A stretch of 64,000 nt of DNA from Myxococcales bacterium (GTDB lineage Bacteria; Myxococcota_A; Bradymonadia; Bradymonadales; Bradymonadaceae), in NCBI GenBank assembly GCA_007135085.1, contig SLJM01000154.1, positions 293 to 64,292 on the forward strand. Direction: 5' to 3'. The position numbers and the translations under genes are program-made. Below the pieces are notes generated by a model. That model was not told where the DNA came from, did not search any database, and worked only from the letters and a program-made list of their open reading frames with translations. Every line of letters starts with the position of its first letter. Positions within the stretch are counted from its first letter, which is position 1. Below are positions 22,987-27,161 of this stretch, one piece after another.

Positions 22987-23330
22987 ACTTCCCTCGCCAC
23001 TGCAGATAAGACCGCGCAGATTCTTTATCAGAGGAGTCGGAACGTGGTTCGGGTCGTTGCCCGCCACTACCGAGTTGGCTGAATCACTTCGTTGCACTTG
23101 AGCGCATCATATCCCATCGACACCGATGTTCAAGGCCCATTCAATCGGCGTCGAGGGCCAATGGATTCTTGATGGGTTTACCCCATCAGTGTTAGAACCG
23201 GACCGGACGCAGGGTGCTCTGAGGCACCCCGTCCTGGCGGTTGCCGCTGTGCACCCCACTATCGGCGCGGAACAGCGACGAATTAGATGTTTTAAATCTT
23301 AGCGCTTCTATTGTTTTCGAGGTTTTTTCC

Positions 23331-23666
23331 ATGGCCCCATCTGAATGCACAATCGGCCCGGGCATCGCCATCAACGGCCGGGTCTCCGGCGATGAAGAAG
23401 TCGTCGTCTTCGGCTCCATTGAGGGCACGATCGCTCTGGAGAGCAAATTGACCGTCGAAGAAGGCGGCACGGTCGTCGCCGATATAGACGTCGACGCCGT
23501 GGTCATCCGCGGTCAGGTCAACGGCGAGGTCGTGGCCCGACAGACCGTAGAGCTTCTCGACGGTTGCCTGGTCACCGGTAATCTGCGAGCCCCGCGGATC
23601 ATCATCGAAGAAGGCGCCCGCTTCCAGGGTAATATCGATATGGACGTCGACCTGGCTGCCCAGTGA
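23331..23666 (+). CDS. bactofilin (DUF583) 1
   Basis: 111 aa. Beta-helical repeat pattern IAINGRVSGDEEVVVFGSIEGTIALESKLTVEEGGTVVADIDVDAVVIRGQVNGEV...GNIDM. GAGG RBS. ORF-track start 23241 trimmed. Confidence 0.85.
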   Translation: MAPSECTIGPGIAINGRVSGDEEVVVFGSIEGTIALESKLTVEEGGTVVADIDVDAVVIRGQVNGEVVARQTVELLDGCLVTGNLRAPRIIIEEGARFQGNIDMDVDLAAQ

Positions 23667-23718
23667 TCGTCGTCGTTAAACTGAGAATGAATACCACCTT
23701 GCTGTAAGGAGTTTTTCC

Positions 23719-24036
23719 ATGGCTGACACCGTCATTGGTACAAATATCACCGTCGACGGCGAAATCACCGGCTCCGATCCGGTCATCGTCGAAGGCACCG
23801 TCAAAGGTCGTATCGCCACTGAAGCCGCCCTGACCGTCGCCGAAGGTGGCGTGGTCGAGGCCGACGTGGAGACTCCGGAGATCACCGTCAGCGGACAGGT
23901 CACGGGTAATATCACCGGCGGCGACCGCGTCGAGATCACCGCCGAGGGACGCATGGTGGGCGATATTAAAGCCCCCCGTATCCTGATCGCCGACGGAGCC
24001 GGATTCAAAGGTCATATCGACATGGACGTGGAATAA
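23719..24036 (+). CDS. bactofilin (DUF583) 2
   Basis: 105 aa with the same repeat pattern (ITVDGEITGSDPVIVEGTVKGRIATEAALTVAEGGVVEADVETPEITVSGQVTGNI...GHIDM). AAGGAG RBS. Confidence 0.85.
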   Translation: MADTVIGTNITVDGEITGSDPVIVEGTVKGRIATEAALTVAEGGVVEADVETPEITVSGQVTGNITGGDRVEITAEGRMVGDIKAPRILIADGAGFKGHIDMDVE

Positions 24037-24039
24037 ACC

Positions 24040-24759
24040 ATGGCAGATCCCACAATCATCGCCGGCGGCACCACCATTGCCGGCCGTATTCACGGCACCG
24101 ACGGCGATCTCTCCGTAGAGGGATTCGTCGACGGTACCATCGAACTCTCCCAGACCGTTCAGATCGCTCCCCAAGGCCGGGTCAATGGCGAAGTGCGGGC
24201 CCGACAGGTCATCGTCGAGGGTACTTTCCAGGGTGATATCGTCGCCCAAGAGCGAGTCGTCCTCGCCGCCACCGCCCGTGCCGTGGCCACCATCGAAGCC
24301 CCTGTGGTGGAGATGGTCGACGGTGCTCAATTGCGCGGTGAGTTGACCGTCGGTGTCGACGGTGAGGTGAGCATCTCGGCCGAGACGCCCAGTTCACGCC
24401 GAGCATCGACCTCCCGGGCCACGACCACTCGTTCTACCACCACCACGACCCGCCGGGAGGCTCCCGCGACCACCGGGGCGTCAGCCGCTACGGCGGCAGC
24501 TCCGGCGGCGACGACCACCACCACGGTCGTCACCGAGCCCGACGACGAGGACGACGACTCCGAACCGGCCCCCGAACCATCGGAGCCCAAAGAGGAGTCC
24601 GATCAGGAAGTGGTCACCGAAGAGGAGATCGAGGAATACCGCGAGGACTTTACGGTCAAGGAGTTGCGCGATCGTCTGCGCGACCTCGACCTGCGCGTCA
24701 GCGGTACCAAAGATGAACTCATCGAACGACTCCTGGCGGCCGAAGCGGGTGAAAGTTGA
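24040..24759 (+). CDS. bactofilin 3 with T/A/R-rich and acidic linker and a C-terminal SAP/HeH motif
   Basis: Bactofilin core in residues 1-110. Low-complexity linker RRASTSRATTTRSTTTTTRREAPATT...DDEDDDSEPAPEPSEPKEE. C-terminal FTVKELRDRLRDLDLRVSGTKDELIERLLAAE, encoded at about 24646-24744. Confidence 0.85.
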   Translation: MADPTIIAGGTTIAGRIHGTDGDLSVEGFVDGTIELSQTVQIAPQGRVNGEVRARQVIVEGTFQGDIVAQERVVLAATARAVATIEAPVVEMVDGAQLRGELTVGVDGEVSISAETPSSRRASTSRATTTRSTTTTTRREAPATTGASAATAAAPAATTTTTVVTEPDDEDDDSEPAPEPSEPKEESDQEVVTEEEIEEYREDFTVKELRDRLRDLDLRVSGTKDELIERLLAAEAGES

Positions 24760-24781: not shown

Positions 24782-25342
24782 ATGAGCAATTCAGCGAGAG
24801 CACAATTAGCCGATCTGCTTCGAGCCCATTCGGTGCGACAGGGGCGTTTTGAACTCTCCAGCGGCGAAGTCAGCGATGTCTACGTCGACGTCAAATCCAC
24901 CAGCCTCACCGGCGCGGGAGCCGACCTGATCGGTCGCCTCCTCTTCGAGCTGGTCGCCGATCTCGATCCCCGGCCAGAAGGCATCGGTGGTTTGACCCTG
25001 GGAGCCGATCCCCTGGTCACTGCCGTGTCTCTGACGGCCCACCTTCAGGGGACCGACCTGGCTGCACTGATCGTGCGAAAAGAAGCCAAAGGTCACGGCA
25101 CGGGCCGCGCCATCGAGGCCCCCCCCACATTGGAGAAAGGCGCCCGCGTGGTGGCCGTCGACGACGTGGTCACCACCGGGGGCTCGACATTGGTGGCCAT
25201 CGAGGCCATGCGCCAGGCCGGCTTTGTGGTCGAAGACGCGGTCTGCGTCGTCGATCGACAGGCCCAGGGCCGGCAGGCACTGGCCGATGCCGGCGTCACC
25301 TTGCACGCCCTCTATGCCCTCGACGAATTATTGGAGCCCTAA
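24782..25342 (+). CDS. pyrE: orotate phosphoribosyltransferase
   Basis: RFELSSGEVSDVYVDVK and PRPP-binding VVAVDDVVTTGGS. ORF-track start 24713 trimmed to ATG 24782. Confidence 0.9.
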   Translation: MSNSARAQLADLLRAHSVRQGRFELSSGEVSDVYVDVKSTSLTGAGADLIGRLLFELVADLDPRPEGIGGLTLGADPLVTAVSLTAHLQGTDLAALIVRKEAKGHGTGRAIEAPPTLEKGARVVAVDDVVTTGGSTLVAIEAMRQAGFVVEDAVCVVDRQAQGRQALADAGVTLHALYALDELLEP

Positions 25343-25345
25343 GCT

Positions 25346-26215
25346 GTGGATCACAGCTCCTATCTGACCGCCCGTGACGGCACCCGTATCTGGTACGGCA
25401 CCGTCGGCGAAGGGCCACCGCTTGTCCTATGCGATGGCTTGGCCTGCGACGGCTTTATCTGGCCCTACGTCATCGATCACTTCGTCGACGACTTCACCAT
25501 CGTGCGCTGGCATTATCGCGGTCACGGCGAAAGCGATCTGCCCCCCGATCCGGGGAGCGTGACCATGCCCCAATTCTATACCGATCTGGAGGATCTGCTC
25601 GACGAACTCCACATCGACCGGGCCATCCTGGCCGGCCACTCCATGGGAGTTCAGGTCATCCTGGGATTTATGGGCCATCGACCGGATCGGGTCTCGGCAC
25701 TGATCCCCATCTGCGGTAGCTATAAGAGGCCGCTCGACACCTTCCATGGAAGTGACCTTCTGCGCCGCGCCCTCCCCTATATGCAGCGGACCCTCGAGGT
25801 TGCTCCCCAGGTCATCCAGGCTGCCTGGAAGACACTGCTGCCCCGCCAATTCTGGTATCAATTTGCCGTCCAGGCCGCTGAGGTCAACGGACGGCTGCTG
25901 CGTCAGAAGGATTTCATCCCCTACCTGGAACACGCTGCCGAGATGGACCTGGAATTCTTCCTCGGTCTTCTCAGCGCCCTGTCCAACCACACCACAGAAG
26001 ATCTGCTCCCAGACATCGACGTGCCGGCCCTGATCATCGCCGGCGAACGCGATACCTTTACCCCACTCTTTCGTTCTCGAGAAATGGCCCAGCAGATCGG
26101 CGACAGCGAATTGGTCATCGTCCCCGGAGGCACCCATGTGGCGCCCCTGGAACTTCCCGATCTGGTGACGACGGCCATGGATCGGTTTTTCGACCGCCAT
26201 GACCTTCGAAAATGA
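25346..26215 (+). CDS. alpha/beta-fold hydrolase
   Basis: Nucleophile elbow LAGHSMG, C-terminal ...GGTHVAPLE, 289 aa, GTG start. Confidence 0.8.
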   Translation: MDHSSYLTARDGTRIWYGTVGEGPPLVLCDGLACDGFIWPYVIDHFVDDFTIVRWHYRGHGESDLPPDPGSVTMPQFYTDLEDLLDELHIDRAILAGHSMGVQVILGFMGHRPDRVSALIPICGSYKRPLDTFHGSDLLRRALPYMQRTLEVAPQVIQAAWKTLLPRQFWYQFAVQAAEVNGRLLRQKDFIPYLEHAAEMDLEFFLGLLSALSNHTTEDLLPDIDVPALIIAGERDTFTPLFRSREMAQQIGDSELVIVPGGTHVAPLELPDLVTTAMDRFFDRHDLRK

Positions 26216-26237: not shown

Positions 26238-27161
26238 CTAGCCGATGGTGACCCGAAGTAGCTGCTGGCCCATCAGAACAAGATCGCCGCTGGACAGGCG
26301 CCGCTCTTTGCGAATCTTGATATAGCTGCCATTGCTGCTGCCCAGATCGCGCAGATAATATTTGCCGCCGTCGCGATAGATGCGGGCATGCTTTCCGGAG
26401 ACGAAGCCGTCTTCCCGAAATAAGATGGTGCCGATCTCGCGGCCAATGGTGGCCTCATCACCGGAGATGGCAAAACCGCGGGTTTCGATATTGGGACCGC
26501 CGATTAGCGACAGTCGGCCCCATACACCGGGGTCGGGGCTGCCCTGAAGCCGGGTATCACTGTTCTTGGGTTGACCACCAATCGATCCGAGCTGTGAAAA
26601 TACCTCGAAGCGAAGCACTTCCTGACCGATGCGGATCAAGTCGCCCTGTTGGAGCTCTACGTCGTCTCTGAGCCGCCAGAACACACCGTTGAGACTATTG
26701 AGGTCGCGAAGTTTCAATACTCCCGACTCATAGCGAATCTCTGCGTGTCGCGGGGAGAGAAAGCCGTCGTCGGCCAGAACGTCGAATTCGCTGTCGCGAC
26801 CGAGGATCAACCCCGCCGAGCTCAACGGAATGCGTGCCCCCTCACTGCCGTCGGGTCGAATGACGGTCAACTCCCCGATCTGATCGGCGCCAGCGCTGGG
26901 CGCAGGTCCTCCCTGGACGGTGGCCGCCGCCTCCGAGGAGGCCGGTTGAGACGGCTTCTGAAGCTGCTCCAGCGAACCGCCGCAAGCTCCGCAGAATTTA
27001 AAGCCCGCCGGCACCTTGGTGCCGCAATGAGGGCAGTCGAGCTTCTCTGGTTCGCTCACTTTCTTCTCGGGCTTTGGCGCGGTCAACGCCGAGCCACACC
27101 CCAGGCAGAATTTAAACTCGTCTTCGTTTTCTCGTCCGCAATTGTCGCAGGCAATCGGCAT
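26238..27161 (-). CDS. double zinc-ribbon plus two FHA domains protein
   Basis: CDNCGRENEDEFKFCLGCGS and CPHCGTKVPAGFKFCGACGG. Two FHA cores: LILGRD...SPRHAEI...LRDLNSLNGVF and ATIGRE...SGKHARI...LRDLGSSNGSY. Start trimmed to ATG 27161 with a GAGGTG RBS; the ORF-track start is a TTG. Confidence 0.75.
   Translation of the reverse strand: MPIACDNCGRENEDEFKFCLGCGSALTAPKPEKKVSEPEKLDCPHCGTKVPAGFKFCGACGGSLEQLQKPSQPASSEAAATVQGGPAPSAGADQIGELTVIRPDGSEGARIPLSSAGLILGRDSEFDVLADDGFLSPRHAEIRYESGVLKLRDLNSLNGVFWRLRDDVELQQGDLIRIGQEVLRFEVFSQLGSIGGQPKNSDTRLQGSPDPGVWGRLSLIGGPNIETRGFAISGDEATIGREIGTILFREDGFVSGKHARIYRDGGKYYLRDLGSSNGSYIKIRKERRLSSGDLVLMGQQLLRVTIG

Follow-up and report, generated by a model that had tools for sequence, protein, structure and literature searches.

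A bactofilin with a C-terminal SAP domain in a bacNOP-type locus without padC in the family Bradymonadaceae

We analyzed a stretch of 64,000 nucleotides (nt), here called the window, from a marine predatory bacterium of the family Bradymonadaceae, in which three tandem genes encode bactofilins of 111, 105, and 239 amino acids (aa) and the third product ends in a SAP domain (Table 1). The gaps between the genes are 52 nt (genes 1 and 2) and 3 nt (genes 2 and 3). As expected from an earlier interpretation made from the letters alone (the sequence-only reading), which had listed the three genes with these lengths and gaps, all of the products matched the bactofilin profile PF04519 (DUF583; curated cut-off, 27.9 bits) at 79-83 bits with E-values of about 1e-23, and the matches spanned 96-97 of the 98 profile positions. 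The window belongs to a fragmented metagenome-assembled genome (MAG) of 5.2 Mb in 509 contigs with 93% completeness. When the whole assembly was searched in six frames, these three were the only bactofilins and this SAP domain (41.5 bits) was the only one observed. None of the three proteins is covered by an NCBIfam model, and the sources give proteins of the bactofilin 3 type only the names 'hypothetical', 'SAP domain-containing', or 'polymer-forming cytoskeletal protein'.

The start of protein 1 was placed at the ATG at 23331, over an upstream TTG at 23241, because its homologues begin at the same Met (MAQSSCTIGPG). Protein 1 has no N-terminal extension or membrane-targeting peptide, and a targeting peptide is absent from all three bactofilins. 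The start-codon context TTTTTCCATGGC, which the sequence-only reading had seen to be shared by genes 1 and 2, is indeed present, and gene 3 shares CCATGGC; the likeness is due mainly to the Met-Ala start that the proteins have in common and carries little weight.

Table 1 Features of the bactofilin locus and of protein 3 (positions in the window)
Feature	Position	Strand	Basis or remark
Bactofilin 1, BacN-type, 111 aa	23331-23666	+	PF04519 82.9 bits; clade with M. xanthus BacN
Bactofilin 2, BacO orthologue, 105 aa	23719-24036	+	PF04519 82.7 bits; 56% identity to BacO
Bactofilin 3, positional BacP counterpart with SAP tail, 239 aa	24040-24759	+	PF04519 79.4 bits, PF02037 38.5 bits
Protein 3, predicted beta-helical bactofilin core, residues 1-105	24040-24354	+	AlphaFold2 model
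Protein 3, predicted disordered S/T/A/R-rich linker, residues 106-166, ending TTTTTVVTE (24511-24537)	24355-24537	+	pLDDT about 45-55
Protein 3, acidic segment, residues 167-203, net charge −18	24538-24648	+	Composition; last 10 residues helical, packed on SAP
Protein 3, SAP domain, helix / extended loop / helix, residues 204-235	24649-24744	+	PF02037, AlphaFold2, Foldseek, profile search
Phosphoribosyltransferase (pyrE-like) gene	24782-25342	+	PF00156; 22 nt 3' of gene 3
Alpha/beta hydrolase gene	25346-26215	+	PF00561; 3 nt after the phosphoribosyltransferase gene
Double zinc-ribbon protein with two FHA domains	26238-27161	−	Two genes downstream, on the opposite strand

The structure of protein 3 was modeled by AlphaFold2 (AF2) with 37 homologues. 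In the model, residues 1-105 contained 11 beta strands and no helix, the predicted local distance difference test (pLDDT) values averaged 91-98 in 10-residue blocks over residues 1-100, and the core is accordingly modeled as the right-handed beta-helix of bactofilins. At the interface position of the conserved polymerization Phe, F was found in proteins 1 and 2 and L98 in protein 3, the relatives of which have L, F, V, or M. Residues 110-190 were predicted to be disordered (pLDDT about 45-55). The sequence-only reading had described a T/R-rich and then D/E-rich linker; residues 106-166 are rich in S/T/R/A (84% S/T/A/P/R/G; net charge +1) and residues 167-203 are acidic, in line with that description. 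The 10-residue pLDDT blocks then climbed from 81 to 95 through helices predicted at residues 194-203, 206-215, and 224-238, and the latter two, the SAP helices, were joined by an 8-residue loop with a pLDDT of about 95. The SAP segment of protein 3 has a net charge of −2, and the median net charges in the family are +2.5 for the linker, −12 for the acidic segment, and −2.5 for the SAP segment.

The tail, with the motif FTVKELRDRLRDLDLRVSGTKDELIERLLAAE at 24649-24744, had been proposed to fit a SAP/Rho-N (HeH) consensus, and the SAP part of this proposal was borne out. Residues 204-234 matched PF02037 (SAP; curated cut-off, 23.9 bits) at 38.5 bits within the whole protein, and the isolated tail scored 42.1 bits. 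The Rho_N or generic HeH identity was rejected: PF07498 was not matched at E<=10 by the full protein or by the tail, only SAP was matched, and no Rho structure was among the 30 Foldseek matches listed. When the tail was modeled alone, a pLDDT of 88 was obtained, and its 16 best Foldseek matches in the PDB were all SAP domains (probability 0.84-0.99; root mean square deviation 0.3-4.1 Å), including those of E1B-AP5, 3'hExo, Tho1, DEK on the nucleosome, Hcc-1, MKL1, and SF3B2; FAN1, Ku70, and PIAS1 entries and a few unrelated chains were found lower in the list. The SAP domains of known structure bind nucleic acids: among the PDB titles of these fold matches, that of Tho1 reads 'SAP domain is a DNA-binding domain', DEK and Ku70 are given on nucleosomes, and 3'hExo is given on RNA. 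Furthermore, a profile of 15 tails matched the SAP domain of human MKL1/MRTF-A with an E-value of 3.7e-12 and the shared motif VSGTKxELIERL, and the same profile matched the SAP domains of Tho1, Ku70, and E1B-AP5 at about 2e-5. That the tail should score as SAP had been set beforehand as a test, and it did so by Pfam, predicted fold, and structure profiles. As judged from sequence, predicted fold, and the profile comparison with solved structures, the tail of protein 3 is considered to be a genuine SAP domain.

A word-indexed search of 5.8 billion proteins gave about 47 clusters with PF04519 and PF02037, the named sources of which are Lujinxingia vulgaris, Bradymonadaceae strain TMQ3, Persicimonas, and Myxococcota MAGs; the gene is present in cultured species (L. 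vulgaris and strain TMQ3). When 37 of the about 47 SAP-type bactofilin clusters were aligned, 26 columns of the protein were invariant, and 12 of these were in the last 30 residues (T205, V206, K207, E208, L209, L213, D217, G222, T223, K224, L227, and R230). With L209, L213, and L227 and with G222 in the loop, the tail shows the heptad-like Leu pattern and the conserved loop Gly of SAP domains. The basic residues K207, R210, R214, K224, and R230 were invariant or nearly so, as was the G-T-K turn. The SAP tail is the best-conserved part of protein 3, and the earlier expectation that homologues would keep this segment held across the about 47 clusters and the whole family. The linker varied in sequence and length except for a TTTTVVEE motif, with T160 and E166 near-invariant in the 37 homologues. 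This motif, TTTTTVV(T/E)E at 24511-24537 in the window, was near-invariant in SAP-type proteins despite the variable linker and was modeled with low AF2 confidence.

The distribution was surveyed across the GTDB class to which the window belongs, with its 113 species genomes; 81 of them had bactofilin matches to protein 3, mostly three per genome, and the SAP matches were concentrated in the Bradymonadaceae. Among the 43 genomes of this family, the SAP domain was found at the 3' end of the third bactofilin gene on the same contig in 36, the SAP-bactofilin gene was split by a contig break in 3, and the locus was absent or cut by a contig end in 4. The SAP tail was observed in all 39 genomes with the locus assembled, and an intact third bactofilin without SAP was found in none of the 43. 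Outside the family, no SAP domain coincided with a bactofilin in the class survey. Similarly, when 1.84 billion representative proteins were searched for relatives of the tail, the best 150 included nine bactofilin clusters, all with this architecture, and no other bactofilin. Because the fusion was unseen outside the Bradymonadaceae and was kept throughout it, we regard it as a lineage-specific, retained innovation. In a maximum likelihood (ML) tree of the core domains, the SAP-type third paralogues formed one clade with 100/99 support, which is consistent with a single acquisition of SAP and subsequent retention.

SAP domains were also seen on other proteins of the Bradymonadaceae. An open reading frame of 530-560 aa that ends in SAP (40-54 bits) was present in at least 12 genomes of the family (L110:1848-2867 (-), G009:C87, G010:C141, G022:C50, G020:C101, G025:C2, G024:C221, G013:C101, G012:C167, G027:C107, G029:C6, and G026:C216). 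At L110, the one locus examined, it contains the trigger factor C-terminal domain PF05698; no description of a SAP-tailed trigger factor, which is a ribosome-associated chaperone, seems to exist, and the window's own assembly has no SAP of this kind. In addition, G033, a complete 8-Mb genome of the same family, encodes a stand-alone protein of 91 aa (L112:452-727 (-)), the C-terminal 34 residues of which are a SAP domain (49 bits).

The relation to the bacNOP genes was examined with a profile of the second paralogues, which recovered 80 loci across Myxococcota including Myxococcus xanthus, in comparison with 2 for a single-protein scan. The gene order in M. xanthus is hydrolase, bacN, bacO, bacP (end GAKKKVVVKKKTR), padC, and phosphoribosyltransferase, and that in the window is bac1, bac2, bac3 with SAP, phosphoribosyltransferase, and hydrolase. 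In about 50 Myxococcota loci including that of M. xanthus, the phosphoribosyltransferase gene lies directly 3' of the third bactofilin gene or of padC; hence, gene 3 was assigned as the positional counterpart of bacP. Genes of the gene 3 type always had a bacO-type gene on one side and the phosphoribosyltransferase gene on the other. Over its full length, protein 2 shares 56% identity with M. xanthus BacO, and proteins 1 and 2 fell into the BacN and BacO clades, respectively, in the ML core-domain tree (BacO clade support, 99/97). The best M. xanthus BLAST match of protein 3 was BacP with 38% identity. Judged from gene order and sequence, the locus corresponds to the M. xanthus bacNOP locus without padC. 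The resemblance to the Myxococcus scaffold is accordingly stronger than the sequence-only reading had proposed, the locus and its phosphoribosyltransferase being the same and padC missing.

In M. xanthus, the BacNOP scaffold organizes the ParABS machinery and the origin region, and PadC binds BacP's C-terminal extension (Lin et al. 2017, PMC5703909); the conserved KKKVVVKK motif of BacP is potentially involved in PadC binding (PMC12448750). The locus in the window is like that of M. xanthus in its three tandem genes with the same order and the same phosphoribosyltransferase, in a third protein with a long disordered C-terminal extension, and in the lack of N-terminal membrane-targeting peptides. 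It differs in that padC is missing from the locus and from the genome, and in that the core of the third protein has strongly diverged. Furthermore, whereas the tail of M. xanthus BacP is Pro-rich and ends in KKKVVVKKKTR, that of protein 3 consists of the S/T/R-rich linker, the acidic segment, and the SAP domain, and the basic terminal motif KKKVVVKK is absent from its end. Other variants of the third paralogue were observed in relatives, namely proteins of 431 aa (L072:4000-5295, ending KRDLTVRGRKSALIDRIIENIG), 369 aa (L046:4324-5433, ending SGSKDELIERLVLGPEDF), and 187 aa (L038:4321-4884, ending STKGTKAQLIKRLEESE), and one of 322 aa in a sister lineage with the unrelated end LEYSNLNEMIAAYTAHVSSLKA (L040:4368-5336). 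In a sister family (f8), the BacN-type first paralogue has a short Arg-cluster end (…SSSRRR, …GNRRR, or …PQRRR; L022:4666-5010, L026:5939-6331, and L029:5826-6188), which protein 1 of the window lacks.

The lack of a parA-like or padC-like gene beside the bactofilin triplet, which had been pointed out from the sequence, was confirmed, and in the assembly only the canonical parB was found, on another contig (C144). PF02195 (ParB_N) is a marginal detector of PadC, since M. xanthus PadC scored 26.4 bits with a cut-off of 26.3; hence, searches with the C-terminal domain of M. xanthus PadC and with a PadC-like protein of family f8 in the same class were added. None of the three queries detected PadC in the window's assembly. 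The PadC-like protein of family f8 has about 330 aa and combines a coiled coil with a ParB_N-like domain that bears a GYRR motif; its C-terminal helical region is conserved, and its gene is not linked to the bactofilin triplet (L113:1306-2292 (-), L114, L115, and L116). It was found in 18-19 f8 genomes, the third bactofilins of which have KKK-type tails (E 1e-29 to 1e-207), and in none of the 43 Bradymonadaceae genomes by the homology searches, with which four single-contig genomes of the family agree.

Three combinations of tail and padC were distinguished. In Myxococcia (Myxococcus, Corallococcus, Archangium, and Anaeromyxobacter), the third bactofilin has a KKKVVVKKK-type end and padC adjoins; in many other Myxococcota, a similar basic end occurs with no adjacent padC; and in Bradymonadaceae, the SAP end occurs with no padC. 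The basic ends of the second kind are KKKVVVKKK, KGKRKVKRRR, or RVIVKRK, and the phosphoribosyltransferase gene follows directly (L045, L047, L050, L052-L054, L056, L059, L060, L064, L066, L067, L071, L079, and L080). The basic BacP end may have a role beyond PadC docking.

We favor, with even confidence, the interpretation that a BacNOP-type filament displays many flexible SAP tails which bind DNA directly. If they behave as in M. xanthus BacNOP, the three beta-helical cores would co-polymerize into cytoplasmic, nucleotide-independent filaments, from which each third subunit would project a disordered linker of about 85 residues capped by the SAP domain. The filament would carry a dense brush of SAP modules, and individually weak SAP-DNA contacts would sum to a high-avidity link between the scaffold and the nucleoid; with many tails acting together, even weak contacts could be enough to tie the scaffold to the nucleoid when PadC is lacking. 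This link would do directly what the KKKVVVKK tail of BacP, PadC, and ParA do in M. xanthus, and the acidic segment just upstream of SAP may tune or auto-inhibit the binding. A conserved SAP end joined to a freely varying linker is what would be expected if a functional module sat at the end of a flexible tether. The interpretation is also favored by the part that the M. xanthus scaffold, the ancestral system, takes in chromosome segregation, and by the exchange of the PadC-binding end for SAP in a family in which no PadC-like gene was found. The conserved basic residues and the G-T-K turn of the tail are presumed to correspond to nucleic-acid contact positions in other SAP domains. Nucleic-acid binding by this SAP domain is suggested by the members of the SAP family only, and we infer that the cores co-polymerize, that the ligand is DNA, and that the scaffold takes part in chromosome organization or segregation.

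Several of the results weigh against this interpretation. The E-values of the Foldseek matches were weak (0.5-2), since the domain has only about 35 residues. The net charges of the SAP segment (−2) and of the segment preceding it (−18) are unfavorable for DNA binding unless it is regulated, and certain SAP domains serve chiefly in contacts with proteins, as in the PIAS1 entry, the title of which is 'p53 binding domain'. As for the relation to BacP, the free tree placed the SAP-type clade, which has a long stem (0.79), outside the BacP clade and together with two long-branch first paralogues of family f8; the approximately unbiased (AU) test did not reject one clade comprising all third paralogues (p = 0.28). 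The orthology of protein 3 to BacP, which is thus not rejected, rests on position and best match, and the core-domain tree leaves the SAP-type clade apart. Furthermore, PadC-like genes and SAP are both missing in families f2 and f4 of the same class, so that loss of PadC alone requires no replacement, and the correlation across families is suggestive, not strict.

Because the SAP segment and its flank are acidic, the chief rival is that the SAP domain is a protein-docking module that recruits a client (ParA, ParB, a nucleoid-associated protein, or a lineage-specific adaptor) with no DNA contact, in a role like that of KKKVVVKK for PadC. This is possible, though we consider it rather unlikely. 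The M. xanthus BacP tail is a protein-binding hub (PMC5703909; PMC12448750), a net-acidic tail is a better match for a basic protein partner than for DNA, the SAP surface is near-invariant almost throughout, as is typical of a specific protein interface, and protein contacts are mediated by some SAP domains, as the title of the PIAS1 entry (1v66) indicates. However, the locus has no candidate partner gene, its phosphoribosyltransferase and hydrolase neighbors being present also in lineages without SAP, and the occurrence of SAP on the trigger factor and on the small stand-alone protein in Bradymonadaceae is more easily explained by a generic ligand such as nucleic acid. If that ligand were RNA, not DNA, the scaffold would localize transcripts, ribosomes, or RNA-processing factors. 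The SAP domain of 3'hExo contacts the histone mRNA stem-loop and its entries 1zbh and 4l8r are in the top 13 fold matches, the messenger ribonucleoprotein (mRNP) protein Tho1 is among the closest matches in both fold and sequence, and the same type of SAP module lies at the C-terminus of the ribosome-associated trigger factor in related genomes. Nevertheless, we regard RNA as an improbable ligand: the orthologous M. xanthus scaffold acts on the chromosome segregation machinery, no RNA-related gene was found at the locus, and the acidic context disfavors RNA as much as DNA. An entropic brush, in which the tail would have no specific ligand and the linker and helical cap would only tune the solubility, spacing, or bundling of the filament, would suit the long, disordered, highly charged linker and the finding that the C-terminal tails of bactofilins are mostly poorly conserved and in some cases dispensable (PMC12448750). 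It would need no invariant folded domain, whereas the terminal 30 residues of protein 3 are the most conserved and match a ligand-binding fold family above the cut-off, and it is considered very improbable.

If the direct binding of DNA by the SAP tails is correct, bactofilin 3 would be, as far as our searches show, the first bactofilin reported to carry a nucleic-acid-binding domain of its own, and this would suggest that the BacP tail ultimately serves in attachment to the nucleoid. The sequence-only reading knew of no description of such a filament, and indeed we found no paper in the literature that joins a bactofilin with SAP or with Bradymonadales. Client recognition by bactofilin scaffolds is poorly understood (eLife 2025, PMC12448750), and how the M. 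xanthus scaffold holds ParB-parS is still unclear (PMC5703909). The Myxococcota provide a natural swap experiment in this respect, in which the same three-gene scaffold occurs with three types of BacP end: KKKVVVKK together with PadC in Myxococcia and family f8, a basic end but no PadC in many Myxococcota, and SAP but no PadC in Bradymonadaceae. The locus in the window can be regarded as the BacNOP scaffold with a different output module.

Protein 3 shares the 35-residue fold and the sequence signature with eukaryotic SAP proteins (Tho1, hnRNP-U/SAF-A, E1B-AP5, DEK, Ku70, PIAS1, and MRTF-A/MKL1), and its tail model deviates from solved SAP domains by 0.6-1.7 Å. It differs from them in that it is bacterial, its partner domain is a bactofilin beta-helix, its SAP domain is net acidic, and its binding is predicted. 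SAF-A joins a SAP domain with self-assembly into a scaffold. Protein 3 might similarly be a bacterial 'scaffold attachment factor', that is, a nucleotide-independent polymer that binds the chromosome via an array of SAP domains and replaces the PadC/ParA route in one lineage of Myxococcota, a proposal that we make tentatively and hold to be somewhat doubtful. Because the module is so near to eukaryotic SAP domains, as seen with MRTF-A, this proposal, if true, would bear on how SAP-based links between chromatin and scaffold arose or moved between bacteria and eukaryotes. With the membrane-bound bactofilins (Caulobacter crescentus BacA, Thermus thermophilus TtBac, and Helicobacter pylori CcmA), protein 3 shares the PF04519 beta-helix core and the hydrophobic residue at the polymerization interface. 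In contrast to these bactofilins, which have an N-terminal targeting sequence (MFSKQAKS in BacA; PMC12448750) and short, poorly conserved C-terminal tails, protein 3 has no N-terminal peptide and its tail ends in a folded, conserved domain.

The two genes that follow bactofilin 3 are on the same strand, and no terminator-like site was found on this strand between 23000 and 26400, where the counts of the promoter and terminator scan were at the level of shuffled sequence. From the gene spacing, the hydrolase gene is probably the last gene of the bactofilin transcription unit. The hydrolase gene keeps its position after the phosphoribosyltransferase gene in Bradymonadaceae loci; its M. xanthus homologue is located upstream of bacN. 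Beyond it lies the gene for the FHA/zinc-ribbon protein (26238-27161 (-)). FHA domains read phosphothreonine, and a link between this protein and the Thr-rich linker of the nearby protein 3 is purely speculative. Among Bradymonadia loci, those with SAP tails and those with KKK tails alike have the FHA/zinc-ribbon gene at this place.

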